A stretch of 63,220 bases of DNA, the filler included, from Collodictyon triciliatum (taxonomy: Eukaryota), in the NCBI GenBank assembly GCA_043381765.1. It is 11 parts of 11 records of this genome, joined end to end, with 100 filler letters (N's around TTAATTAATTAA, not from the genome) between each part and the next. Parts side by side here need not be neighbours in the genome. Positions count along the whole stretch, not along the records: positions 12,886 to 19,226 come from JBHJMP010004530.1; 10 more parts are not named here. The stretch is one strand, 5' to 3'. The notes under the pieces are model-generated. The model was not told the DNA's origin, made no database searches, and saw nothing but the letters and a program-made list of their open reading frames with translations. Below are positions 4,574 to 63,048 of the stretch, piece after piece (the stretch's first letter is position 1; each line of letters begins with the position of its first letter). A program made the position numbers and the translations under genes.

Positions 4574-6054
4574 TCAAAGGCCAATCCAGTATGTACGTCC
4601 GTTGGGGTTGTGGACCGGAGAGATATCGGGGCTGCTGACGGACCATTCGTACCACACTTTTGTCTTCGAGGCACACCTCCAAAAGTGCGCCACGATTTCC
4701 GATGAGACGGGCACGTAAATCGGGCTCTTTATTACATATAAATCGGTGGCGATGGAATTGCATAATCAATCAATGAAACTCAATCATTCGGAAAAGATTT
4801 CATCTGTTTTTTTTTTGTTTTTTTTTACTAATAAATAATTAAATAAATAAAATCTTGGTAATCAATAAACATCAAGTGAATAAGGTAATTGTTTCATACA
4901 CGGAGCGGGAAGAAGATTGGAAACCAACTGGACATTTCAGGTGTGTGTGTCATCGGATTTGTACCTTTGATTAAATAAGAAAAAATAAGTGACCCACAGG
5001 TAGCGAACTCGCGAGGAGATAAAAAAAAAAGTGGAATCATGTAGCGAGTCGCATTTGCAATCAAACGCTATTCCTGGCCGGGCATTGAGAAAATAGTATA
5101 TTGTTTAAAATTACTTAGGGTGACATCGCCATAGAGAATGCATTCGAAATAACCTCCGAATCCATGCAAAATAGCAGAGTCTTCACAGCTGAAATGAAGG
5201 CTTACTTCACGGGTGTTGTTGATGGGGGACTACAAGCACAATTTAAGGAAAGTGTGTGAGTTTCCCAATATTTGATTGCTTGACACTTTCATTTACTCCA
5301 AATTTATGTTCTTTTAAGTAATTAAATATTTGCATTCTCTTCTGTGTGAGAAAAGAGAAAAACGTAGTAAAAGAGTAAAAGAAAAAAAAAAGGTATAGGA
5401 AAACCTCATGGTTTGGATGAACAAATCGAAAGCACTTTTGGGGGTCTGCAAGTCTACGATGCGCAAATAGCTTCACAACATATCCCGTCTCAAACCGAGC
5501 TTGTTCATTAAAGCTCTTCACATCGTTCCACAACTTTGAAGTGGTCACCGGCGACAGGTACGACGTATACTCACTCGGAATGCTGATTCCTCCATCTATG
5601 GATGTCCCATATTCGCTTGAGTATCTCATTCACATGTATGAATCGTTTTTCATGTGTGCAACAAAGTGTATCATCACCATGACATTGCTGATGATAATTT
5701 TGTGAGAAATAAGACAGGAAAAATGCCAGTATTTGCGAGGCGAATGTAAACATACCTTTGAGAAACTCCTGTCCAAAGTCGAGACACTCGGGTGATAATT
5801 CATTGTCTCCAAACGAGCCCAGAAGCTCGCTTACAATAATATCAGCTTTTGCCTCCGGCTTCCATTCGCGCATGTCTGGGGTGGGAGAAGAAAAGTTTTT
5901 GGGAATGGGAATGATGCACTTGACGTCACTTCAATTATGGTATGCTAATGTTGGGTGCCAATAAACTGAGAAAGAAAAGCATTATTAGTAAATACCGGTA
6001 TGGACGATACTGACGCGGGAACCCCATCCAAGGGTGACTCTCATATTTTGTAAT
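4574..6054 (-). CDS. PRMT5: Protein arginine N-methyltransferase 5, C-terminal part (5' end not on this scaffold)
   Basis: Spliced exons give [75 protein letters not shown] and VWYEW...[12 protein letters not shown]. These are diagnostic PRMT5/Hsl7 motifs. Stop TGA at 4574-4576. Confidence 0.95.
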
Positions 6055-6340: not shown

Positions 6341-6440
6341 NNNNNNNNNNNNNNNNNNNNNNNNNNNNNNNNNNNNNNNNNNNNTTAATTAATTAANNNN
6401 NNNNNNNNNNNNNNNNNNNNNNNNNNNNNNNNNNNNNNNN
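6341..6440. other. Artificial scaffold spacer 44N-TTAATTAATTAA-44N; repeated at 12786, 19227, 25671, 32111, 38551, 44996, 51436, 57872 and 60654
   Basis: Ten identical 100-nt spacers; the 12-mer puts a stop in all six frames. Confidence 0.97.
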
Positions 6441-11547: not shown

Positions 11548-12937
11548 ACTTACTTGCTTCAGCTCCAGAAGCTTCCGTCGTTTTCTCTAGTTTGGAAGGC
11601 AATCAGGCAAATACCTTCGCTGTCCGGTTAGCGCAATTGGATGGACTCTTCCCAAAGTTTGTTCCCTTATCTATTTCTTATTCCCCATATGCTCGGCGTA
11701 GGATTTATGTTCGTTTCTCTTCATTTCGCTGATTTCATCAGGGTGTCAAAACATTTAATCAGATGCGCCCAAGTATGAGAGCAGCCACTTCCGTTTCTAA
11801 TCATTACATTCCAGTAGCAGCACGTAAAAGGTGACTAAGTTGGTTTCCTACCAGGAGATAAAATATGGAGACGAAGAAGATTAGTGTAAAAAACTCTCTG
11901 AGTACAGACTGTGATAAGTAAGAAAAAGTGGATGTTGCAGGTGAAAAATTATAATCATAGGTCATGCCAAAGATGGACGTGAAGAGTGGTCAAGAGTGCA
12001 TTCAAAGGGAAGGCCAAAATGGTGCGTGACGAGGCAAACAAAGAGAAAACGGGAGATTAAGCCAAAGAAATGAAAGATTCTTGAGGCTAAAAATAAATAA
12101 ATAATCTGGCAAGGTTTAAAATGATTTATCTGGCTGTTGTAATCACAGTATAATTCTTTAATATATTTCCAATGTGTCTATATAATGCTCTGTAGATTTC
12201 GCTGACATTTATCATGATGACGCACTCTCACAGTTTGTGTGTGTATAGATCTGCAAGTCAGAATAAACGAAGCATTTGGCAATCCAAGCCTCTCTGCATC
12301 AGTGGTATCAGTCTGAGTGTAGCCTGGTTGGTTCCTTGTAATTGTGGTATACTTACATCCATTCCTTCTAACCTCGCTGCACTTTGAATCGAATAAAGGA
12401 AAAAAAAAACCAAAAGAATCTATGGTGCTTTTTTGTCATTATGCCGAACCGGGTGGCTTGTCCGAATCTTACGCTTTTTTGCTTTTGTTTCCTTTCATAA
12501 CCTGCTCACAAATCAGGAAGTTTATTTTCCATATTTGAATATAGTAATTGGCATGAATCACCATTTTTCTTTGGCATGGGTAGTCAGAATATTTCTGCGC
12601 ACAAAACATGATATATTGGACGAGTCGCTTTTCTCAGATCAAAACAAAAAAACAAAAAACAAAAAACAAAAAACAAAAAACAAAAAACAACAAACATAAA
12701 ACAACAAACATAAAACAACAAACATAAAACAACAAACATAAAACAACAAACATAAAACAACAAACATAAAACAACAAACATAAAANNNNNNNNNNNNNNN
12801 NNNNNNNNNNNNNNNNNNNNNNNNNNNNNTTAATTAATTAANNNNNNNNNNNNNNNNNNNNNNNNNNNNNNNNNNNNNNNNNNNNATACCAACACATCTA
12901 TCACACATAATTGTATTCTTTTACACAACCTGATTAG

Positions 12938-15900
12938 ATCACGAGTGTACCCGAATGGTTATGTAGCATGACGTGGCTTGAATCCCTTGATATCTCTATG
13001 AATTATGTATTTTTCTATTCTCTTTTTGATGTTAAATTTATCTAACTATATAGAAAATATTATATCACTCTTAATAATAAAAAATTATTTTACCACACAG
13101 AAATACTAATTAAAAAAATGTAGTCTAAGTAGTATTATTTATTCGATCTGTTAACATTAGTAATTAATTTCATTACAAAAATTCACAGATATCCGAAATT
13201 CCCAAGGATGTGATGCTTCTTTCTAATATTACAAATTTATCTATAATTTCCAATAAGGTCTGTAATTTATTTTGTTATTCATATACTTCATCACGTAAAA
13301 TATTATGTATCATTATGGTTTACACGTCTCCATTTAACAATGACTTTTAGATTTCTTCACTTCATGCCTCTTTTTTTTCAATATTATCCATCGAACGCTT
13401 ATGTTTATGCAATAACCAGGTAACATTGCTCTTTAAATCGATTATTTATTCTTTCTTAAGTATTAATACTATTTCTTCCCCAAAGCTTGGTTCCATACCC
13501 GAAAAAATCACGCATCTGGTCAACATGAAATTTTTTTCTATGAGTTCGAACAAGGTTTCAAGACCTTCATAAATGATTGTTTAAAAAAAAACCATAAAAA
13601 TTGAAATGAAGATATTGGAATAATTTTTTTTAAAAAAAAATGAAAAAAAATAGGTATCATTCATTCCTGAGTGGCTTTTTGGAATGTCTTCGATAGAGTC
13701 CTTGGACTTGTCATTTAATCAAGTTTGTTTACTTTTGAGGCAGTTTTCTTCTATTTGGCCCTCGAAATAAATATCTGCTTGTACCTTTATTTCAATTTAT
13801 TTGAAATTTCAGAAAGTATTTATTCTGACTTTCAGAACCCTATAGATATCATGTATACCCGATGTTGTCGCGAATCTACTGCATTTGAAAATGTTGAATT
13901 TGTCTCACAATGAGGTACATTTTTTTTCTTGGCGGGGATTTTATTGAAAAGGAGAAGGAAATGCTTGTTCTCGAATGTAGAGCATCATAGAGTCTTGTTG
14001 GCTGTAAAGTTAATTAGGTGCACCATATAGATTACCATGCTGCCTCCTTGCCTAGGAACTATTAAAGGTTTGCGAAATGGGTTAAAAGTTGATTCCAATC
14101 CTATAGGAAATGTACCGATGAATGTAGTCAATAGAGGAAGCGATTTCTTGTTTGATTATTTGGCAGCATCAATGGATGGGCTGGTTAAGTGGAGGCAGGG
14201 TAGACTTTTACTCCTAGGCGAAGGAGAAGCAGGGAAAACCACCCTTACTCGGGCTTTGATGCAGCAATCTGGAAGATTTGAAAGTGCTATAAATGACCAA
14301 CAAGGAAGGACTGACGGAATTGAAAATGTTGACATAGATATTCATGATATGAACCTTGGTCACTCTCGAGAAGATATTTCAGTCAAGGTATGGGACTTTG
14401 GAGGGCAAGATGAATTTCAAGTCACACATCCATTTTTTTTATCATCAGGGGCTTTAGTTTTGATATTATACAGACTTGATCAAAGCGTACAGAGAAACAA
14501 TATTTCACGTTGGATTCAAATGATCGACGATTATGCACCAGGCTCCAAAGTTATAATTGCAGGAACCCACGCTGACTGTGAGGATGAGTACCATTCTCGG
14601 AGAATGCAGAAAGAAATAGAAAAAGCAATTAAAAGGAACAAGAAAGGTCATTTGTACATCAGTTATAATCTTAAGGTGAGTAACAAAAACGGAATTGGAA
14701 TCCGCGAATTACAAATGAAAATCTATGAAGGCATGCTTCAACTAGATAATGTGAACAAAGACGCTCCTAATTCATATGTCCGTCTTAAAGAATACCTCGA
14801 ATCTAAGGGCAGAATAAGGAAATATGACAGCTGTCTCGAAGTATTTGATTTTGCAGAATATTCTCTAAAAATGGATGTAGATCGATGCTCCAGTGCTCTC
14901 AAATTCCTTCATGATCTTGGCTCGATTGTTTGGTACTCTTCTCATGAGAATATCAAGGGTTATGTTTTTTTGGATCCCTTATTCTTGATTAACGTCTTCA
15001 GGTGCGTTTTCAGTTTTCAAGGAATAGGCAAAAAATCGAATGGAATTATACTCTTGGAGAAACTAAGGACCCGAATAAATCAAGAATTAGGCATGGAGGT
15101 TGATGAACCAGTATTTCATGCAGTTATAAATATTTTTGACCACTTTGGTCTTGGCATCAACTACAACAAGGAATGTATCGCCTTTCCATCCTTAATGGAA
15201 AATTGCCCCAATTTAAATGTGATATGGAACCAAAAACCAGAGTCACATTGCATCTCAGAGATAAGTGTTGTGCTATCAAGTGGGAGCGAAGTCCAGCTGT
15301 CTGATAAAAGCGGTATCATAACCCTATCTCTTCGATTAACTAAAGGAGCTCCTAAACGTGTTCTGCATGAAGATGTATTTTTCAGAGACGTCGCTCTAGT
15401 TCATTTAACAGACCACCAACAACAGGATGGCATCCCCTATTTTTTGATTCCTGGAGAAGATCTAGGAATATTGATCCACATTCAGAAATCGTCCATAAAT
15501 ATCACCATACGAAATTATGAATCAGGTGTTATAAACAAAAAACCGGCTAACCTTTTTAAGGTTTTGCGCTTCTTTGTTGACAGGATATCTTCGATTCGCC
15601 CCAATCTCGTCAAATTTTGCAAATTTGAATGTTATGAATGTCGTAAACAGAGGTCAAATGGTTTTATTAAGTCACCTGTAAAAATCAATGATTCAGATTT
15701 GATCAAATGTACTATGGGGCATAACCTCGATGCTGGCGCTGTTAAACGTGGGCACGTTTTCATGGAAGAAGGTACGAGCAATTTTGAACGTCAAAGTGAC
15801 ATGAAATATGTACCAATCTTTCTATTCCGACAAAATTGCATCTTAAATCACGCAGAAATGGAAAGTATAATGTCACTCCTTTCACATACATACATACATA

Positions 15901-18900
15901 CATACATACATACATACATACATACATACATACATACATACATACATACATACATACATACATACATACATACATACATAGTGGAAATAAAAGCACTCAT
16001 TTTCAAACATCACATATTTATTGTAGTTTTTCATTCAAAAATTCTTACAGATATGATATTATTGATTGATTTTTATGCTGCAATAGGTTTTAAACATCTA
16101 CAATCAGAGACAAATCGGAAGCATAATCAGAATGAAAGTTCTGCAAAGAATCTAGAGGTGAATGCAATCGACAAAGAACTGCGTGACTTATGGATTCATG
16201 AAAGAATTGAGTTGATAGAGTACATCGGAAAGGGCGCATTTGGTCGTGTTTATAAGACTTTTTATCAAGGAGAAGATGCAGTAGTGAAAATACAAACAAT
16301 AACAAGCCTTGACCAGAAAGATATTGGAAGCATGGTCTCATCTCTTATTCTGGAGAGTCGTTTCATGTTTCAATGTAGTAATTGTGAGCAAGTTGTGAAG
16401 CTTTATGGGGTTTATCGTAAGGACAGTGAATTTTATATGATTATGGAGCACGCTGGAATATCATTGAAGGATGTTATAGAAAAAATACCGATAAAGCCTT
16501 CAACTCTCCATAAATCATTATACATTAAAAATATTATACAAGGATTGATATTTATGCACTCCAAGGATCTCTACCATGAAGATCTTAAAGCTGATAACAT
16601 AATGATTGTAAAAAATACCGCTAAAATTGTCGACTTTGGTATAGTTAGTCATCGTGGTCAAGAAAAAGTTGGTTCCAGTTTGCCCACTAAATATGGGGAA
16701 TGGAAGCAAGGAGGGACACCAAACTGGCAAGCTCCAGAAATTCATGAAGTTACGTGTAACCTATACTACAAAGATGATCCATCCAAGTATGGAGATACTG
16801 AAACAAATATTGGTCATCGTGGAGAGCCAAGTAATGTATATGCATTAGGAATGCTTGTGTGGTACATGTTCTCTGGTATTGAGCCGTTCAGAAATGAAAA
16901 ATATCCAGAGAATTTTACCATCAGAGGGCTAAGGCCTGGTATTCCGTTGGAAACTCCTTTAGAATTTGAGTACCTTTTTAAAGCTTGTTGGAGACAAAAT
17001 TATAAACTCAGACCAAGTTTACATATGGTTTCTTCTTACGTGAATGAGTTAATATCAAATAAGCTCCAAATGACCCGAATGAGGATGAAGGAATTGCTTC
17101 CTGTGAAGTATTCATACTTGGATGATATGTACAAAGGAGAGTTCGTGGAGTGGCTTTTGGATCATGGTTTCAACCTAATAGGCCATAAGCTGTCTGATGA
17201 AACATGGACCAAAAGCACTGAAATTCTTGAAAAATTAAGTCATGAGTCGATTAAGGATAATTATTTGGTGAATCGGCAGGACAAATATGTACTTGTTCAT
17301 TTATCGCAGCAGAAATTGCTCCATAAAACTACGTCAAATAAACAATACGTTGGTGAGCTATCACATTATGAGTTGGCTGAGCATTTTAAAAAGAGTTCAA
17401 ACCATGCTTCAACTAGGCTATATGAAAAAGTTAAAGCATGGAAGCTTGACGGACCGGCCATTTCAAAATTAAATGAACCAAATATATATACAAGATACTA
17501 CATTCCAGAGCAAGAAATTTCTTTTGTTGCTGAATTTATTAGTGATCAAAAATTGACGGAGCAAGGGACATCATCAACTGTCCTTCCTTTTAACGCTAAT
17601 ACATCTTTAGAGGGTGTAGAAAATATCGAACCGCGCTACACCCCTCTCTGTTACGGACTAATCCATTCCACCTCTCTTTGGCTTGGCGGAAAGAATCTCT
17701 CTTTTGTGCCTGATTTTACCAGATATTTGACCAAGATGAGGCGACTTTATTTGCATTCTAACAAAGTAAACCTCAAGATTACTATGTTTCCATTTATTTT
17801 TAAATAGGATTGGATTCATTCAACTGTTTTCTATAAAACATATGATATATGTCTTATTTTTATAATAACTCAATACTAATACTATGTAGCTCAAATTCCT
17901 GTCAGATGCATGTTTTGCTTTGACAGATTTGATTTCTATGGACTTTTCGGATAATAAGGTATTCAGCTGTTTCTGAAAATGTTATATTGTATACATAATT
18001 TCCAGCTAGCCTGATTTGATTATAAAAGAGCCTTATTTCTAATGCACTGCCCTTTTCTCTTTCTTTTTTTTAAACTATACTCCCTTTTTATTATAAGTTA
18101 ATTTGATTGGTTTGGTTTCATTTGGTTAGGTTTCACTGTTGCCTCAACAGATATCGAACATATCTTCTCTAGAATATTTGAATATGAGCAATAATAGATT
18201 ATCCAGCCTTCCGAATAGTTTTTCAATACTTTCTAATTTGAAGGGTTTAGATATATCAAATAATAAGGCATGTTTTATTATGTATTAATCGTTCACAAAT
18301 TAAGTTAGCATCGGATATTGCCTTAATACATATAAGTATCCACATTGTGACCTAGTGTGTTGTAGTCATATTTTTATTTACTATATTGATCTTATATATC
18401 ATGATATAAGGCTGATATTTATATATATATTATAGATTTCTACTTGTCCTGGCCCTATTTTCTTGCTGAAGTCGATTGAAACTCTCCATTTATCTGACAA
18501 CTATATTTCATTTATCCCAAATAACTTTTCAAATCTATCGCTATTGACAGAGCTAAGTTTATACGGAAACCCAGTAAGATTGAATCAAAAACCTTGAAAT
18601 AATTGATTTCATCATAATAATCATTTAAATTATCAAAAAAAAATCAACATTTCTCATTTAGGTGGAGGAACTACCATGCGAATTCAACAAACTCGTGAGT
18701 TTGAAGAAGTTGCTCATTAGGAGCGACAGTGGAGGCATCGAACTCCGAAGGGCGCATATTAGTATCACAGAGTTATTTATTTGGAAAAACATTGAGAACT
18801 CTGAGGCAGACTCAATCCGCTCCCTCAAATTGTATCACGATCCAGTAATTCTTCATGAATTGCGCATACTTTTTTCAACACTACATTATGCTGTCGCATA

Positions 18901-19198
18901 TATCTTTCCATTTACAACTTCGACTCGTATGAAGGGAAAAAAAAATCTATTTGTAACACAGGCGAACAAATCCATCATAGGTTAATTTTTTTTCAAAAAA
19001 ATCATACATTAGATTGGTCTTGGTTTAAAATATGAGTATTGTATCCCAAATAAAGAGGAAAAGATGAATTGGAAGCCAAATGAAGAGCAAATTAGAGACT
19101 GGAAGATGCTCGGCTTTGCAGGGATGGCCCTTCAAGCAATACCTCCATTCGTATCTATGTTAAAGGATTTGAATTATATCAGCTTCCATAATAACACT
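12938..19198 (+). CDS. Roco-family protein: LRR(n)-Roc GTPase-COR-protein kinase-SAM-like-LRR(n)-LRR, partial at both ends
   Basis: Roc motifs GEGEAGKT, WDFGGQ, GTHAD. COR motif LHDLGSIVWY..VFLDP. Kinase motifs GKGAFG, HEDLKADN, DFG, GTPNWQAPE, CW...RPS. LRR exons at 12938-13006, 13189-13257, 13351-13419, 13486-13554, 13654-13722 and 13846-13914; core 14031-15771 plus 16087-17765; then 17890-17958, 18130-18267, 18436-18573, 18662-18844 and 19013-19198. Confidence 0.93.
15885..15980. repeat. (CATA)x24 inside a stop-free 315-nt putative intron of the Roco gene
   Basis: Seen directly; donor GTACG at 15772, acceptor AG at 16085-16086. Confidence 0.9.
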
Positions 19199-19326
19199 GT
19201 AAGTATCCCGAACCATGCATGATAATNNNNNNNNNNNNNNNNNNNNNNNNNNNNNNNNNNNNNNNNNNNNTTAATTAATTAANNNNNNNNNNNNNNNNNN
19301 NNNNNNNNNNNNNNNNNNNNNNNNNN

Positions 19327-19790: not shown

Positions 19791-21880
19791 TAGATTTTTT
19801 CGGTTTTTATATTTATTTTTTTTTTATTATTTGTTTTTGTTTTTTGATTTTGATTTTGATTTCGATTTTTTTCTTTCAATTTTTTTCTTTCAATTTTGTG
19901 CAGGATGGTTGAGGTGCTGGCTTTGGTTCGCTAGCCATCTTTTGTGTGGGCACCACTTGGTGGCCGGATGGTGGAGAAGAAGACGGTAATAAGGAATCGC
20001 ATCCTGCGGTTTGGCCTGTAGCCTGGGTCTTGTGCTTGCACGAGGGATACAAGGCGAGGTTTAATATCTTTCTCAGCCTCTTTACAAATGTCTCTTCTCA
20101 CAGGGTCTGAGTAATAGAGAACGTGCAGGTGGCGAAGGAAGCTGTTGAGGAAAGAGATTTGTATGATGTCATCCAGTCTGTTATCAGGAATGGGTGGCTG
20201 GTTGTTGAGTCTTGCTTTGCGTGAGTATATGCGCGCTATCCACATAGCCCATAGCAAATGGCCTCGCGTCACTGCCCAGAGTGTTTTTGCCTCTGGACGC
20301 AGCTGTTGCAGAGGCCCAAATATCGCCTGGATTGGGCCAACAGCTGCAGCCGTCTTGAGTGTCAGTCGAAGAATCTCACCGGCTGTTTCGCGCAGGTTCT
20401 GAGCGAAGAGACATTGCACAAATGTGTGCTCGATGGACTCATCATTGTTGCTGCAAAGTGTGCATTCTTGGGAGACTTTACCAGCTTTTGCCGCGCGTGT
20501 GCCTATTCATAGCTGCCTATTGGTGATATAAAGCATTAGAGAGCGGTGATTTGGTGTATATCTCATTTTGCTGGATACTGATGAAGATTTCACGAGCAAA
20601 GGAACGAACCTCATCCAATCAGAACTTCCTTGGGTGACTGCTTTGAGTAGATTCGTTTGTGAATGGAATCGTCTCGCTCCACGCCAAGCCCCGAGACATT
20701 CAACCTTTTTTTTTTTTTATTCTTCCTTTCAATTTTGTGCAGGATGGTGGGATGCTGCCGAGACATTCAACCTTACATATGATTGTGCAAGCTACCTCGT
20801 GTTTGTGGAGGGAGACGTACTCCTCTGCAGTCTTAGCGAAAGGGCGAGACAAAGTGAGCAAGAAGTACTTTGACAACTGAGGAAGTTGGTAGCTGTGTGT
20901 CGCGTCCTTCCACAGGAGGTGCTGGATTGTTTTACACCAAGGTAGCATTCACATCCCGCTTTTTTCTCGCATTGAGGTTGTTTGTGAGGCAGCCGCAAAG
21001 CCCCGCTGAGTCAAGCCTTGTCTTCTTTCCTCTCCTTGTGGCGAACAAGTTGGGATGTGCCACGCGCTATCCCGTCAGAGGAGAGACCCGTCAAGGCCGC
21101 GAGTTGAAACCATTTCTACGAGAGTCCAGTCGCGCCTCTAGCCACCTTTCTAGAGGGTTATAGAAGGGCTTCTTGCTTTGTCAGTCGCCCAGTTCTAGAG
21201 GCGAGGCCTAGCGGGACTCGACTTGCTTCGAAGGTTACATATGTGGTGTTTATTCGACATAAATCAGGCGGCAGCAACGACTGTGACTGCGACTGCGATG
21301 AACGGTCAAGCGCTCTGCAGCCAACTGTGTGAAAAGCAGAGGCGTGTTCAGTGCGAGATTCTGTGTCTGGTGCGTTACTCGATGGAAGGGATAAGAGAAA
21401 TGAAGGGAGGGCAATGTCAATGTCTGGGCCCTGAGCAAGTTGCTCCACAGCCGAGTGGCCGAAGCGAGCAAGCGCATTCGTGCCTTTCACAGCCATGGGG
21501 CAGACTCAGCCAGGGAAACGCACGCCTTTTGGGCGCAGATTCCCTTTTCCACCCAAGTTTTGCTGTAGCGCACTTTCGGCTCTGTTGTGGAATGTTGAGA
21601 CTGACACAACAGGAATTTGGGTGCGCTCGACATGAGGGTTTCATGGGGGTCAGTTGGTTGGCGAAGAGTTGGTTGGCGAAAGGAGGTAAGCACTTACGTT
21701 CACTTAGTTCTGCTTCCTCGGCGTCCTTTTCGGCTGCTGATCTGCTGGCATCGAGTCCTGATCCTTCGATTGGCTGAGAGCCGATCCTACCCACTCCTTT
21801 TGACTTTCTTTCACACTGCCAGGTGAATGGCGCAAACATATAAGGGACATCAGGCAGCCCACAAAGACCACAAAACCGGT
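19791..21880 (-). mobile_element. 5'-truncated L1/Tx1-like non-LTR retrotransposon (ORF2 C-terminus with zf-RVT), degenerate
   Basis: CCHC finger ECTLCSNNDESIEHTFVQCLFAQ, followed by LWAVTRGHLLWAMWIAR. W-to-TGA change at 20507-20509. A-rich tail at about 19791-19890. Homologous to 30160-31550. The 5' boundary is approximate. Confidence 0.85.
20691..20774 (-). mobile_element. 50-nt poly(A)-tailed micro-insertion with a 17-bp target-site duplication
   Basis: CCGAGACATTCAACCTT at 20691-20707 and 20758-20774. Insert 20708-20757 matches the element 3' terminus at about 19887-19919. Confidence 0.9.
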
Positions 21881-25519: not shown

Positions 25520-27583
25520 TTTTCTTCTGGCAGGTCGTTTTTTTTTTTCGGTTCCATTCAGCAGATGGCCATGTGTTTGTTTTTGTTTGTTTTTGTTTGT
25601 TTTTGTTTGTTTTTGTTTGTTTTTGTTTGTTTTTGTTTGTTTTTGTTTGTTTTTGTTTGTTTTTGTTTGTNNNNNNNNNNNNNNNNNNNNNNNNNNNNNN
25701 NNNNNNNNNNNNNNTTAATTAATTAANNNNNNNNNNNNNNNNNNNNNNNNNNNNNNNNNNNNNNNNNNNNTTTTTATTTTTGTTTTTTATTTTTGTTTTT
25801 TATTTTTGTTTTTTATTTTTGTTTTTTATTTTTGTTTTTTATTTTTGTTTTTTATTTTTGTTTTTTATTGGTTTATTGGTTTATTGGTTTATTGGTCTGT
25901 TTGTTTGCTGGTACGTTTGTTTTATTGCTTCAGGATAGGCTGGCCGCGCAGAGCTTAGTGGCCGATCGCAGCCATGGATTAATGTGAGGATACTTGCCTG
26001 CCCTTTCATAAGCGCTTGTGCAGAATTGTGCGGCGAAGATGCCAGAAGCTTCCAGAGGGCAGCGCCACAAATCCGTAAATTCCAAGTCTGGCAAAATGTG
26101 GCTTCCTAATATATAAATTATAATTGGAATATATACGTCTTATGATTTTATACATTATAGATTGGTATTTATTTATCTTTAACATATAAAAAAATATCTA
26201 ATATACTATTAGTAGCTTATAGGAGACTCTAAGTGTCTACAGTTCCCTCGAGCAGCCACGCATGCCCAAATGCACGGATACCGGCGGGTCGAAAAAAACA
26301 GCGCCAGGGAATAACGGAAGAATGCAGGAAATGCGTACGAGAGAAACATTTTTTTTTATTTCACCCGCACAGCGCGAACGACCAAAAGAAATTTTGCAAG
26401 ACAGCCAGAGTGACGTCACACAGGGCAAGTTTGTAATGATTTTGATCGCCAAAGCCTTTGTGAGATTTGTCGACAGTTTTGTGGGTAGCAAGCTAAGCGC
26501 TTTTCAGGTGGGATTGTGGATCTTATTTGTTTCGCATGCACCAAAGCTTTTCGCCAGTCGATACAGTCCGTGTTTGTTGCAGGACGCTTTGACTACTCCC
26601 CAAAGCACTGGGGTGCATCGCTCGCCGGGATACCAACAATTCATTGCGCTAGTTGATCGACGTGTTGGGTTGTGGGAGTGGGTTTTCATAGAGTTTCATT
26701 TGAGAAAAAGTCCTATGCTTAGTTGAACAGACATTTAAATAGATGCTGTTTATTTGTGTCTCATTTTGAAAGGGCGTAAAACAAAAGAAAAAATACCAAG
26801 AAAATGTTCAAAAAGCAACCAAATTCAAATCATTAGTTCGTCCACGACAGTTCCTGCGCATGTGCGCATTGGGAAGGGAAAAAAAGGAGAAAGAATTTTA
26901 GGCTAGCTTTTTTTTTTTCCCCCTTCGTTTTCTTTTGCCTCGTTTTATTTCTGTGTAAAATTAAGCATAAGTGTCATTCGCGTATATAAACAGAACGAAT
27001 GCACAGCTACACATTTGTCAAGAGTCAGAGTGGCGCCATGATCGCTTCAACCACCGGCATAACAACCACCCATAATGACTGCCCGATGACAGCAACTTTC
27101 AACACTCCCCCAGCTCTGTCTCTCAGTATATTTCACCTACCTCTTTACCTTTTCAACTAAAGTGTGTAGGGTGCTGCTTTTGAATCGTTAGAGACGGCCC
27201 TTTCTCCTTTTTTTTTTTTTTTGATTCTCCAGTGTCTAACAAAGAGTAGGCGAGAAGGAAGAACAAGAAATGGCTATTGATTTGTTTACATGAAGAGATT
27301 TGTGGAGAAGAGCGTGGTATGTTCTTGAGGTTCTATGAATAGAGTTGTTATTTCAAACAACTCCCCATCCCGATGGCTGCCTCCTTCAAAATGGCTGTGC
27401 CCATATAATTCCCCTTTCCCATATGAATTAACGAATGCTAGAAGATCGAGTTGTGATCAATCTCTTGGGCAATTTATTCTCCCTGATGAAGATATACTGA
27501 TAAAGCACCTATCTATGTTTTTTGGCTGTTTCGTCCTCAAAGCTATATTCCATTCTTTCCTTTTTTATTTATTTATTTATTTT

Positions 27584-30159: not shown

Positions 30160-31550
30160 ATTTTATTTTATTTTTTTTTATTTATTTTTGTTGATTAGGC
30201 GATGCCAAGATAGGTATTAACCTGTCGCACCTAAGTATCTTTAATATCGATGGGGTATATATAGGTAAGTAGAATGGCCCTGGAAGTACGTAAAGGACCT
30301 GGGCAGCCGCCTCGGAGCGATGATGCCCAGCATCGAGTCCAAAACGAAGATGGGCGACTGGAAGCGCAACTGGTGGTGCGCAATCGTCGGCCGCACCAGC
30401 GACGTCCCATGCAGGTAATGGCTCTCGTAGATGCAGTTCGCCTGGTTTGCCGGGAAGATAAAGTCTGCGATAACCTTCTTCCGCAGGTCCTTCAGTAACA
30501 CCTGGCACGCTTCAATCTTGAGAACCTTCTCCTGCGCTGCCTCAAACTCATTATTTTCAGTGCGGGGTTTTTGTTGTATTTCTTTTTTCTTTTTTCTTCT
30601 TCCGGAGTGCTTTGAAATGGCAACAAGCATTCGCTTGCGGTCAGAGTAGCGAAGAATGCGGGCGTGTTTCAGCAGGCTGTTCAGGAAGCTGTATTGCACG
30701 AGGCTCTCAAGCCTGGCTACATTGATTTCTCGTTCGGATGAATCATTAGAGCGAGAGAATGCACGCATACTACACAAGAACCACATCATATGTCCCCTTG
30801 TGACTGTCCAGAGTATTCTAGACTCGTGGGTCATTTGGTATTGTGGGCCAAACAGGATATCTGACGCGCTGAGTCAGTTGGGAGCATAATCAAGCCCAGA
30901 GAGCATCTTGTGAGTAGATTCTGTCACTTTTTGAGCAAGGGAGCCCTTCACAAATGTGTGTTCGATAGAGTCATCTCCACTATGGCACATGGTGCATTCC
31001 GGAGAGGTCGTTGCTGCATGGGCTACACGCGCACCTATCCACAGCTCTCTGTTGCAGATATTGGGCACTAAGGCGCGGTGTTTCGGGAGTAACTGAGGTA
31101 TACGGGGTTGCTTCCAGCTTTTGACTATCGGCGGGTCTATAATGCCTATAGTTTCGGCCCAACGACTCATCTTCTCCGGTTTGTAGGGATTCGGGCGGAT
31201 GATTTTATATCGAAACAGCTTGGAATATGCCATGGCAACCATGAATTGTGGAGAGTCCGGTGTAATGGACCGCCTTCGGTTCTTCAGGCGAAAGAAAAAT
31301 GGCGACGGCGCTCCGTATGAGATGGGATGACGTGAGAACCATTCTCCTTTGTTGTTCGAGACGGCTGTGGTTGGGTGTGCATCTTTTGTGCAGAATGCGG
31401 CGGAACCTGGTGTCGTGATGTATGAGCCGTCTTTTTTGAATGAGATTTCGCTGATGGTGGCCGAGTTGCCTTCCTGAGCCTGTTTGATGATACAAAAGCC
31501 TTTCTGGTTGTCCCAACATATTTACCCTGCTGCCAATGGCTCGTTCAGGG
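30160..31550 (-). mobile_element. 5'-truncated L1/Tx1-like non-LTR retrotransposon (ORF2 C-terminus, zf-RVT), degenerate
   Basis: RELWIGARVAH..SPECTMCHSGDDSIEHTFVKGSLAQ and LWTVTRGHMMW...SFLNSLLKHARILRYSD. Collinear with 19931-20560 but a diverged subfamily. A-rich tail at about 30160-30190. Confidence 0.85.
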
Positions 31551-32110: not shown

Positions 32111-32425
32111 NNNNNNNNNNNNNNNNNNNNNNNNNNNNNNNNNNNNNNNNNNNNTTAATTAATTAANNNNNNNNNNNNNNNNNNNNNNNNNNNNNNNNNN
32201 NNNNNNNNNNAGAGAAGAGAAGAGAAGAGAAGAGAAGAGAAGAGAAGAGAAGAGAAGAGAAGAGAAGAGAAGAGAAGAGAAGAGAAGAGAAGAGAAGAGA
32301 AGAGAAAAAGAGTAAAATCCACAAGTATCTTAAGTAATTTCTCGCCCGCAATAGCTTTGATACACAAAATATGGCATTAATAAGTGGATAGGTCTGGTCT
32401 AAAAGAGACATGAGATAAACCATAC

Positions 32426-38550: not shown

Positions 38551-38765
38551 NNNNNNNNNNNNNNNNNNNNNNNNNNNNNNNNNNNNNNNNNNNNTTAATT
38601 AATTAANNNNNNNNNNNNNNNNNNNNNNNNNNNNNNNNNNNNNNNNNNNNTTTTTCTTTCTTTTTCTTTCTTTTTTCTTTCTTTTTTCTTTCTTTTTTCT
38701 TTCTTTTTTCTTTCTTTTTTCTTTCTTTTTTCTTTCTTTTTTCTTTCTTTTTTCTTTGTTTCTAG

Positions 38766-57871: not shown

Positions 57872-58244
57872 NNNNNNNNNNNNNNNNNNNNNNNNNNNNN
57901 NNNNNNNNNNNNNNNTTAATTAATTAANNNNNNNNNNNNNNNNNNNNNNNNNNNNNNNNNNNNNNNNNNNNTGCGTTGTTTTGTGTTGCGTTGTTTCTGT
58001 TTCTGTTTCTGTTTCTGTTTCTGTTTCTGTTTCTGTTTCTGTTTCTGTTTCTGTTTCTGTTTCTGTTTCTGTTTATGTTTATGTTTATGTTTATGTTTAT
58101 GTTTATGTTTATGTTTATGTTTATGTTTATGTTTATGTTTATGTTTATGTTTATGTTTTGTTTTGTTTTGTTTTTTAGTAAAAATTAAAGAAAGCAATAG
58201 ATGAAGTGTAAAAGGCTACAAAAAAAGTTTCAAAAAAAAGTAGG

Positions 58245-60470: not shown

Positions 60471-61063
60471 GCTACAATCACCTATTATCTATTACTTTCT
60501 CTGTCATGGCTATTGGTATTTTATCATGTAAGCAAGGTACTTTTATTTTATTCTATTTATTCTATTTATTCTATTTATTCTATTTATTCTATTTATTCTA
60601 TTTATTCTATTTATTCTATTTATTCTATTTATTCTATTTATTCTATTTATTCTNNNNNNNNNNNNNNNNNNNNNNNNNNNNNNNNNNNNNNNNNNNNTTA
60701 ATTAATTAANNNNNNNNNNNNNNNNNNNNNNNNNNNNNNNNNNNNNNNNNNNNTTTTGTGAATAATTATTTTTATTGGATGGGGTTTGGTTGGGGGTTTT
60801 TTTTTTTTTTTTTTTTTTTTTGTTTTAATTATCATTCATCCAATAATTAATTCAAAACCTAACTTCGATTCATACATTATGATATGGTCGTGTAATTTTA
60901 AAAGTAGAAATGTATAAGATTGTATCTTAAATACTGTAATTTATATCAAGCGATGTCAAAGTCATCTTTATTGTCATATTCATGGGTATATGCATAATTG
61001 ATCAATTTCTTCACTTGTAAATTTCTTTCAAAAAGTATAAAAAAAAAAATACATAAATAAAAG

Positions 61064-61385: not shown

Positions 61386-63048
61386 TTTTTTGTTGTTGTT
61401 GTTGTTCTTTTGTTTCTTTAATGCAAAGTGCTTATTGGTATATATTAATTTCTAGGTAAAACGGATGGGATAACAGTATACCAACCTATCACTGCCAATA
61501 CAAAATTATCTTCACAAACGTCCGCTGTAGGGAGAAAACTTAGTACATTCTCACCTGGTTCAGGTTATCAAATGACTTTAAATAAACTTATCGGTCGGGA
61601 CTCTGAGATTGAAAGGGTAAACATGCTGGTCCAATCCACAAAAAAATCCACCGAATCAAAAGATGTTGTTCGAATTATCTTAGTTGAAGGAGATATCGGC
61701 ATGGGGAAAACAGCTCTTGTTGAGCAAGCACATATTTTAGCAACAAAAGAGGGATTCACTACAGGTTATGGATGTCCATCAATTGCAACAGAGAGTACTT
61801 GTTTTAATGTATGGAGAGAATTTTTTATGTCCGCATATCCCTCTATAGCAAACGGAAGTGAGGAAGATAGACTAGTGGTATTTACCTTATTTAAATAATT
61901 ATAGAATTAGTCGGGCCTTTTTCAATCATTTTGAAAATATGGAGATAATTATAACAAAATTATTATTCCTATCTTTCATAATTATTTAGTTTTTCCGGAA
62001 AATTCTCGCCCAGTTTGACTTTGGCAGTTCTTCTTTCAGATCAAGCTTTAATGATTTTGATTCGAATATTGAAAATCCATCGAATTACCTGCCATTGCTT
62101 GGCCAAGTTTTCGAATTTCCAGCTGAAGAAACGCAAGCAACTCAAGGACTTTCACCGATTCAGCGTTTAGAATGTGTAGCAGAGATTTTGAAATATTTCT
62201 TCGGGTCAAACACGCTCTTGAAGTACTTATGTATTTTTGAACAAGTACAATGGTATGTTTTATTTATACTTTTACAAGATAAATTATCTTCCTCTCCTAT
62301 ATTTACAGAAATTGTATTATTTCGTTAACTCTCAATCGTAAGCGATGATGGTATCTCTTAATGAATAATAATTAGGTTAGACCCTTTTTCATGGACTATG
62401 ATTATTGACGTAATGAGGAACTTGAATAACATGTCTATGATTCTGACTTATCGATCGTCTTATTCAAGCCTCGTTAAAGAGAAACTGTCCAGTTTGATTG
62501 CAGCACAAAGAGTGGAGACAATTACACTCTTGCCATTAGATTCTGTCCAAATGGTTGATATGGTTAGAAGAAAGTTGGGTGTTTTGAAGATTCCTCGAAA
62601 CCTCGTTGATTTTCTCTTTCAGAGGAGTCAAGGGATACCACTGCATATAGAGGGTTCCGCCTTTCATTATCATCTAGCATTTTTATTCATTATTCATTAT
62701 TCATAGTTATATGGACCTTACCTTGTTAATAGATATGTGAATTTAACTTTTAAATAAACAAGAATAATTTTTAATCGGTAATAAATTATAATTTCTCCTA
62801 CTAGAAATCTCAAGGTTTCTAGTCCATAAAGGGATTATAAAAATTAAGAACTTCGAGTGTGAAATTGCTGTTGACGAAGACCTGAGAAGCATACCATTTC
62901 CTGAAAGCATCGAAGGATTAGTAATATACAATTTCCATAAGAATTTTATCCTATAAACGTGACTCTGATTTTTTTATAATCTTTTATAGATAATTCAGAG
63001 AATTGATGAATTAAGTACAAATTGCTCTCTTTGTCTTAAAATAGCTAG
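61064..63048 (+). CDS. Soluble adenylyl/guanylyl cyclase-like protein (end of class III cyclase domain plus STAND AAA NTPase), partial
   Basis: Cyclase C2 end DTVNLAAHLM..GILCDESTY..VKIKGKTDGITVYQP; then LIGRDSE, Walker A GDIGMGKT, Walker-B region IFEQVQWLDPFSW, RSQGIPLHIEE and PESIEGLIIQRIDEL. This is the ADCY10/SgcA architecture. Confidence 0.88.

Follow-up and report, generated by a model that had tools for sequence, protein, structure and literature searches.

Single leucine-rich repeats on 69-nt phase-0 exons in a ROCO kinase gene of Collodictyon triciliatum

In a stretch of DNA from the protist Collodictyon triciliatum (assembly GCA_043381765.1; 63,220 nucleotides (nt), referred to below as the window), we identified a partial gene for a ROCO kinase whose leucine-rich repeats (LRRs) are laid out one per exon, on exons of exactly 69 nt in phase 0. 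The gene occupies contig JBHJMP010004530.1 (positions 12886-19226 of the window, 6341 nt). In its visible part at least seven LRRs are followed by Roc, COR and kinase domains, a linker and at least eight further LRRs. Exon structure and domain order can be read directly, and the GTPase and kinase motifs are intact. Recent duplication is absent at the locus, and the evidence points to an old, static LRR array. We favour, with a probability of about 0.6, an old tandem duplication of an exon-plus-intron unit, the resulting array being constitutively spliced into one LRR-Roc-COR-kinase-LRR protein.

Exon and domain structure of the gene

The N-terminal block consists of six consecutive 69-nt exons on the plus strand (12938-13914). 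All six stand between an AG and a GT, with a frame that is open from base one; each codes for a single LRR of 23 residues, in phase 0. The Asn at position 22 is present in all six units, which take the form (I/L/V)-(S/T)-x-(I/L/V)-P-x7-8-L-x2-L-x-(L/I)-x2-N-x, and the cut falls one residue past this Asn. The introns that follow the six exons measure 182, 93, 66, 99, 123 and 116 nt. Five of them have a G+C content of 0.17-0.30, compared with 0.28-0.41 for the exons, the exception being intron 6 (0.37). Intron 3 is open in frame and was considered as a regulated retained intron; this was rejected, since it is one of eleven introns and chance suffices for an open frame in so short a sequence.

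The whole window was also scanned mechanically, on both strands, for a 69-nt open frame with the LRR pattern between AG and GT. Eight matches were returned: seven lie in the ROCO gene, one is spurious (18251-18319, same contig), and none was found outside the ROCO contig. Searched one by one against Pfam, three of the six exons gave sub-threshold LRR matches (E 0.0026-0.025), and the other three, together with the 69-nt exon C2 downstream of the kinase, gave none, pieces of 23 residues being too short for Pfam. By contrast with these single pieces, the product of in silico splicing of seven exons aligned with homologues across every junction, its LRRs running unbroken into Roc. Residues 1-167 of this product align essentially without gaps to residues 138-303 of P0009, a protein with the source name 'internalin A' (34.7% identity, E 3.5e-28), and residues 1-545 match P0005. 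The spliced product scores 283 bits against P0001 and 298 bits against P0003, both from Diphylleia, where the seventh exon alone reaches 246 and 241 bits.

The same rule governs the C-terminal block. The last 69 nt of the second large exon (17697-17765) encode LRR C1 and end at the cut point of the N-terminal block, and the exons that follow are of 69, 138 and 138 nt. In total, the cut one residue after Asn was found at all six exon ends of the N-terminal block and at five ends of the C-terminal block (C1, C2, C3, C4 and the last exon). Two putative exons at the 3' end, of 183 and 141 nt, are multiples of three as well. The intron after C3 opens with a GC donor at 18268 (AAG/GCATGT); no GT alternative keeps the frame. 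A preliminary description of this DNA had reported six 69-nt phase-0 exons cut just after the conserved Asn and post-kinase exons obeying the same rule. Both the reading and the scan confirm the one-LRR-per-exon layout, with the cut placed one residue after the Asn.

Between the two blocks the frame is open throughout from 14031 to 17807, and tblastn alignments of homologues start exactly at 14031. The Roc domain (PF08477) scores 71.9 bits against a Pfam cut-off of 27, with GEGEAGKT, DFGGQ and GTHAD intact; a THxD G4 motif is typical of Roc domains. COR-A (PF16095) follows directly, at residues 246-353 (41.9 bits; cut-off 35.3). For COR-B, Pfam listed no match at E <=0.01; the alignment with P0002 nonetheless extends to 15635. 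The protein kinase domain scores 115 bits, above the Pfam cut-off, and its Gly loop, AVVK, HEDLKADN, DFG and APE motifs are present. Since the catalytic loop reads HEDLKADN, the kinase is non-RD, a class linked to pattern-recognition signalling; Dardick and Ronald are said to have drawn this link in 2006. The linker between the kinase and the C-terminal LRRs (17040-17696, about 220-230 residues) has no Pfam match at E <0.01. That an LRR domain precedes Roc is shown by the alignment of the spliced exons to LRR domains in homologous proteins. Thus, by its predicted LRR, Roc, COR and kinase domains, the gene is a ROCO kinase.

A microsatellite, (ACAT)24, lies between COR and kinase at 15884-15980 and most likely marks one intron of the core. 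This would agree with the single apparent intron that had been ascribed to the Roc-COR-kinase region. The core, with about 3.5 kb of coding sequence, would then have a single probable intron, against an intron every 69-138 nt in the LRR blocks. For comparison, four exons of the PRMT5 gene elsewhere in the window cover 233 residues (about 0.7 kb of coding sequence) and are separated by at least three introns. Against this density the core is intron-poor for this genome.

The gene is cut off at both ends of its contig, which is flanked by linkers of the form N44-TTAATTAATTAA-N44. Only 52 nt of intron sequence precede the first visible exon, and the GT donor closing the last visible exon lies 28 nt short of the downstream linker. 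Because of this truncation, the exon numbered 1 must have been preceded by others, and the N-terminal block has at least six exons. The window as a whole joins 11 unrelated pieces, nine of about 6.34 kb, one of 2682 nt and one of 2467 nt, with linkers about every 6.44 kb, so that any feature crossing a linker is an artefact of concatenation.

Table 1. Features of the ROCO gene and linkers of the window (positions in the window).
Feature	Position	Strand	Description
Linker N44-TTAATTAATTAA-N44	12786-12885	.	5' part of ROCO gene missing upstream
LRR exon N1	12938-13006	+	69 nt, phase 0; PEWL...ESLD subtype; unit hidden Markov model 37.5 bits (training unit)
LRR exon N2	13189-13257	+	69 nt, phase 0
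LRR exon N3	13351-13419	+	69 nt, phase 0; next intron 13420-13485 (66 nt) open in frame
LRR exon N4	13486-13554	+	69 nt, phase 0
LRR exon N5	13654-13722	+	69 nt, phase 0; PEWL...ESLD subtype; weak Pfam LRR_8, E 0.0026
LRR exon N6	13846-13914	+	69 nt, phase 0
Large exon	14031-15771	+	divergent last LRR (14031-14099), then Roc GTPase and COR
Roc motifs	P-loop 14217-14240; DFGGQ 14394-14408; GTHAD 14562-14576	+	
Probable core intron	15772-16050	+	279 nt, phase 1; predicted boundaries AAG/GTACGA...TTACAG/, best frame-keeping pair
Large exon	16051-17765	+	protein kinase, linker, LRR C1 (17697-17765)
Kinase motifs	Gly loop 16227-16250; HEDLKADN 16575-16598; DFG 16632-16643	+	
LRR exon C2	17890-17958	+	69 nt, phase 0; cut point of the N-terminal block
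Two-LRR exon C3	18130-18267	+	138 nt, phase 0; GC donor; Pfam LRR_8 31.7 bits (cut-off 27)
Two-LRR exon C4	18436-18573	+	138 nt, phase 0; Pfam LRR_8 31.0 bits
Putative exon	18662-18844	+	183 nt; LRR-like start, then non-LRR; weak tblastn match to P0003; no Pfam match
Putative exon	19058-19198	+	141 nt; ends in an LRR at the same cut (NNT/GT); gene runs past contig end
Linker	19227-19326	.	3' part of ROCO gene missing
Other linkers N44-TTAATTAATTAA-N44	6341-6440; 25671-25770; 32111-32210; 38551-38650; 44996-45095; 51436-51535; 57872-57971; 60654-60753		

The other pieces carry unrelated eukaryotic gene fragments: PRMT5, glutamine synthetase, argininosuccinate synthase, zf-RVT retroelement pieces, an AAA_16 ATPase and one tRNA, the last (49506-49577) being the only Rfam match in the window. 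The four PRMT5 exons lie at 4577-6053 on the minus strand. The zf-RVT motifs of non-LTR retroelements (19934-20506 and 30877-31521, minus strand) stand in sequence with a G+C content of 0.45-0.49, higher than in the remaining window. Open frames at 61449-62703 (plus strand) contain the start of an AAA_16 ATPase (E 1e-6, below the Pfam cut-off). AAA_16 and AAA_22 domains are also present in the ROCO relatives from Diphylleia, and this stretch may represent another STAND-like or ROCO-associated gene. Microsatellites are abundant, with an array of the 14-mer AAAACAACAAACAT at a contig end (12640-12785) and arrays of GT and ACAT type at 45124-45711.

Relatives of the gene and age of the LRR array

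The best relatives of the Roc-COR region are five transcript clusters of Diphylleia rotans (P0001-P0005; EukProt EP00002), at 33-37% identity. An exhaustive search with the kinase half also placed D. rotans at the top, at 47% identity; ten of the eleven best matches were looked up (ranks 1-9 and 11), and these comprise five from D. rotans, three from other named organisms and two nameless representatives. The PRMT5 exons show the same affinity. In a comparison over four exons of 7 of the 120 matches listed, identity to the D. rotans protein reaches 84% and 74% in two exons, and the six other taxa compared there range from 34 to 61%. A single PRMT5 exon taken alone is uninformative, since its identity is 75-90% whether the match is from an animal, a fungus or a plant. 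The affinities of the ROCO gene and of PRMT5 suggest a freshwater relative of Diphylleia (Diphyllatea, CRuMs) other than D. rotans itself.

Seven stretches of the ROCO gene recur in short freshwater-metagenome contigs, with 0-2 differences and the same layout. The alignment took in four of five freshwater data rows (share <=0.07) and the first 2985 of the 6341 contig bases (12886-15870); the cover consists of short contigs only, and uncovered stretches are uninformative. Contigs of 151 nt match 13390-13540, 13840-13990 and 13986-14136 with 0-2 differences. The first is colinear from N3 to N4, with both of its two differences in the intron, and the second, which covers N6, shows none. As two of the data sets (X2 and X3) look identical, the support comes from at least two independent sets. 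Scanning metagenome loci with a single-protein query returned no relative of the ROCO gene. With an alignment as query, 79 loci of prokaryotic ROCO appearance were returned (22-29% identity), and no paralogue was among them.

The exact length of the exons can be accounted for by the repeat period of the family. In the five Diphylleia homologues the spacing from one conserved Asn to the next is 23 residues in 37 of 42 cases, and in P0006-P0059 the same spacing separates 267 of 347 pairs. The latter come mostly from prokaryotic sources and are thus intron-free. A 23-residue LRR period, combined with introns at equivalent positions, is sufficient to give 69 nt, so that selection for exchangeability is not needed to explain it.

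A different reading was nevertheless weighed, in which receptors are actively diversified: the cassettes would be combinatorially spliced and/or exchanged among many paralogous ROCO genes, yielding varied cytosolic LRR sensors, as has been proposed for brown algae. The exon arithmetic allows it. The exons are symmetric phase 0 and multiples of three, so that any one can be left out, doubled or exchanged with no shift of the frame, as the preliminary description had correctly stated, and with no loss of the repeat register. At least five distinct ROCO transcript clusters exist in Diphylleia, which indicates a multi-copy family in the nearest relative, and the kinase is non-RD. Moreover, the brown-algal ROCOs with one LRR per exon show splice variants with differing LRR sets (PMC11378527).

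The tests made at the locus speak against ongoing shuffling. Among the 15 repeat units of the gene, pairwise identity reaches at most 39 of 69 nt (57%) and 11 of 23 residues, the exons having diverged to about 25-57% DNA identity. Maxima as high arise frequently under a null model of shuffled columns (P = 0.19-0.23 for the six exons, 0.19-0.55 for all 15 units). Units from the two blocks resemble one another as much as units within a block (6.8 of 23 residues between blocks, 6.4 and 6.7 within). Repeat finders run on the ROCO contig returned only the microsatellite and short chance pairs, and no repeat linking exons or introns. A four-exon super-repeat, in which N1-N4 would have been copied to N5-N8, was rejected: N2 and N6 share 8 of 23 residues and N3 and N7 only 3, no better than background.

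The likeness of exons 1 and 5, which share the signature PEWL...ESLD, had been taken as a sign of duplication. The shared signature is real. However, the resemblance (11 of 23 residues, 37 of 69 nt) is no stronger than shuffled columns produce (P = 0.23, within the set of six exons), and the five Diphylleia ROCO proteins together contain 17 instances of PEW(L)...ESLD, against none in 54 other, mostly prokaryotic, relatives. Its recurrence across Diphylleia ROCOs identifies a lineage-wide LRR subtype and not a recent copy. In P0001-P0005, units of the type PxW(I/L) often immediately precede an interruption of the LRR array, for example units with non-Asn tails. Such units may be capping or hinge repeats in the Diphylleia proteins.

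Orphan 69-nt exons in introns, which had been proposed as a further check, were sought with a profile built from 13 training units. These exons score 27-38 bits; the best score outside them is 10.3 bits in the window and at most 4.3 bits on the ROCO contig, on both strands, so no orphan cassette was found. Finally, eleven comparisons of isoforms within the five Diphylleia ROCO clusters (Trinity assemblies, clustered at 90% identity) revealed no gain or loss of an LRR unit. The isoforms differ at their ends, by one 49-residue insert outside the LRRs that resembles a retained intron, and by a 17-residue C-terminal difference. This comparison is a weak proxy for splicing, and the preserved local order of the metagenome pieces is likewise a weak test, given one locus, clustered Trinity isoforms and short metagenome contigs. 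Taken together, the results lend no support to the proposal that this lineage has a receptor-diversification system analogous to that of brown algae, and we regard active diversification as unlikely.

Comparison with other repeat-per-exon systems

ROCO-LRR genes with one repeat per exon are indeed known from brown algae, as the preliminary description had noted, and have been described in Ectocarpus and Saccharina (Zambounis et al. 2012, PMC3341825; Teng et al. 2024, PMC11378527). The Collodictyon gene resembles the brown-algal genes in belonging to the ROCO family, in having N-terminal LRRs before Roc-COR, and in carrying one LRR per exon on exons of equal length that can be added or dropped in frame. 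However, the brown-algal LRR exons are of 72 nt and phase 2, with the unit GxxPxxLxxxxxLxxLxLxxNxLx (PMC3341825, PMC11378527), whereas those described here are of 69 nt and phase 0 and are cut one residue past the Asn. With length, phase and cut point all different, cassettes of the two types are not interchangeable and their introns lie at different places. The kinase and the second, C-terminal LRR block of the present gene are both absent from brown-algal ROCOs. Brown-algal ROCOs also form gene clusters, with pseudogenes and orphan LRR exons in introns (PMC3341825, PMC11378527). Recently exchanged or duplicated exons and orphan exons of that kind were not found at this single locus, where exon identity does not exceed 39 of 69 nt. 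No brown-algal protein was present among the source-named matches of the gene, about a quarter of the 101 matches listed.

Single-length LRR exons in tandem are also known from Tetrahymena, where they are exactly 90 bp long, with more than 96% of introns in phase 2, and have been read as the footprint of exon duplication (PMC6564038). That genome holds tens of thousands of 90-bp LRR exons in thousands of young genes, some of them fused to protein kinase domains (PMC6564038). The tandem arrangement is shared with Collodictyon. The Tetrahymena genes are young and non-ROCO (the term 'ROCO' does not occur in PMC6564038), whereas here a single old ROCO locus carries exons of 69 nt in phase 0. In human NLRs an LRR exon of 171 bp encodes two RI-type LRRs of 28-29 residues with the boundary within the beta-strand, and alternative skipping of one LRR exon of NLRP3 changes its function (PMC6642158). 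The LRR exons of NLRP3 are strictly modular, as they are here, but the signalling module of NLRs is NACHT and that of the present protein Roc-COR-kinase. LRR exons of gonadotropin receptors are cited as phase 2 (PMC11378527).

Among closer relatives, the ROCO and kinase transcripts of D. rotans have LRRs with the same period of 23 residues and with the same PxW(I/L) subtype. Unlike the Collodictyon gene, the five Roc-COR relatives from D. rotans lack a kinase Pfam domain and have DUF4062 or AAA-type domains, and they are known as transcripts only. The order LRR, Roc, COR, kinase is that of ROCO kinases of the LRRK2 and Dictyostelium types, although identity to these is only 22-27% (P0013-P0015). 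The C-terminal LRR block lies at the place where LRRK2 has a C-terminal WD40 domain, and no relative with the full order LRR-Roc-COR-kinase-LRR was found among the homologues.

In the literature examined, the one-LRR-per-exon design is not reported for LRRK2-type or Dictyostelium-type ROCO kinases. Within the literature collection searched, we found no publication on 69-bp phase-0 LRR exons, and the matches listed for the Diphylleia and Collodictyon genome literature contain no mention of 'leucine-rich repeat'. Since the brown-algal exons have another cut point and another phase, the exon structure was not inherited from a common ROCO ancestor. The present layout is, on sequence comparison, an independent variant of the known one-LRR-per-exon design.

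Origin of the array and its significance

The old tandem duplication favoured above would have started from an ancestral unit of one 23-codon repeat and one intron, symmetric and in phase 0. Multiplication of this unit in tandem, possibly by unequal crossing-over, would have filled both the N-terminal and the C-terminal LRR block, and the proposed duplication of exon and intron together would explain why each LRR has its own phase-0 exon. The 138-nt exons would represent two units that lost, or never had, the middle intron. To judge by the divergence of the exons, and by introns that show no alignable similarity, the duplications would be old. The length of exactly 69 nt would persist through the need of the solenoid for a 23-residue period, and not through cassette exchange. 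The exons would be spliced constitutively into a cytosolic LRR horseshoe, which may bind partners, and the Roc-COR switch may gate an active non-RD kinase.

Several points weigh against this reading. It is drawn from one locus, truncated at both ends, and constitutive splicing is an assumption. All 11 visible introns of the LRR blocks are in phase 0 and all exons are multiples of three, and a system selected for cassette exchange would look the same. The kinase, with its HED motif, belongs to the class tied to pattern-recognition signalling. One predicted intron requires the rare GC donor at 18268. Finally, 7 of the 11 introns have lengths divisible by three (93, 66, 99, 123, 171, 168 and 213 nt; binomial P = 0.039, post hoc).

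The array might instead have been intron-less at first, as in prokaryotic ROCOs, and have acquired its introns later by independent insertions at a proto-splice site recurring in every repeat. The site proposed consists of the codon after the Asn (AAG, CAG or GAG) followed by A or G. In keeping with it, 7 of 11 exon ends that bear the cut finish in AG (AAG, CAG or GAG), and the two intron-less unit boundaries inside the 138-nt exons lack AG, ending in AGA and TAT. The scarcity of introns in the core, when set against PRMT5, would also agree with a gene acquired or rebuilt in intron-free form. However, an exonic AG at intron boundaries is expected from splice-site selection alone, and eleven independent gains at an identical codon boundary are unparsimonious compared with the duplication of a unit that already carried its intron. 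Parallel gain is thus improbable in our view.

A repeat mis-assembly, or a pseudogene with accidentally open frames, is very improbable and largely refuted. The assembly is fragmentary (contigs of about 6.3 kb), a GC donor is required and the core intron is a prediction. However, none of the 12 exon frames is interrupted, no catalytic motif is damaged, independent metagenome contigs reproduce the seven stretches, and homologues can be aligned to the spliced product from one end to the other.

Old tandem duplication of an exon-plus-intron unit would add, through the structure alone, a further independent lineage in which LRR arrays grew by duplication of exons with their introns, beside brown algae, ciliates and vertebrate NLRs. 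This lineage belongs to a eukaryotic supergroup that has hardly been sampled, and its exons have a length, phase and cut point of their own. The case can help in dating introns and in arguing for convergent origins of repeat-per-exon designs. It is quite improbable that this deep-branching CRuMs protist has an independently evolved system in which interchangeable 69-nt LRR cassettes on both sides of Roc-COR-kinase are spliced combinatorially or exchanged, diversifying sensors of prey or pathogens. If true, it would constitute the third or fourth independent case of immunity-like diversification by LRR cassettes, and the first in which a single signalling core carries two arrays of cassettes. 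Were the cassettes combinatorial, a free-living heterotrophic flagellate would possess diversifiable cytosolic receptors, which would bear on how early such systems arose.

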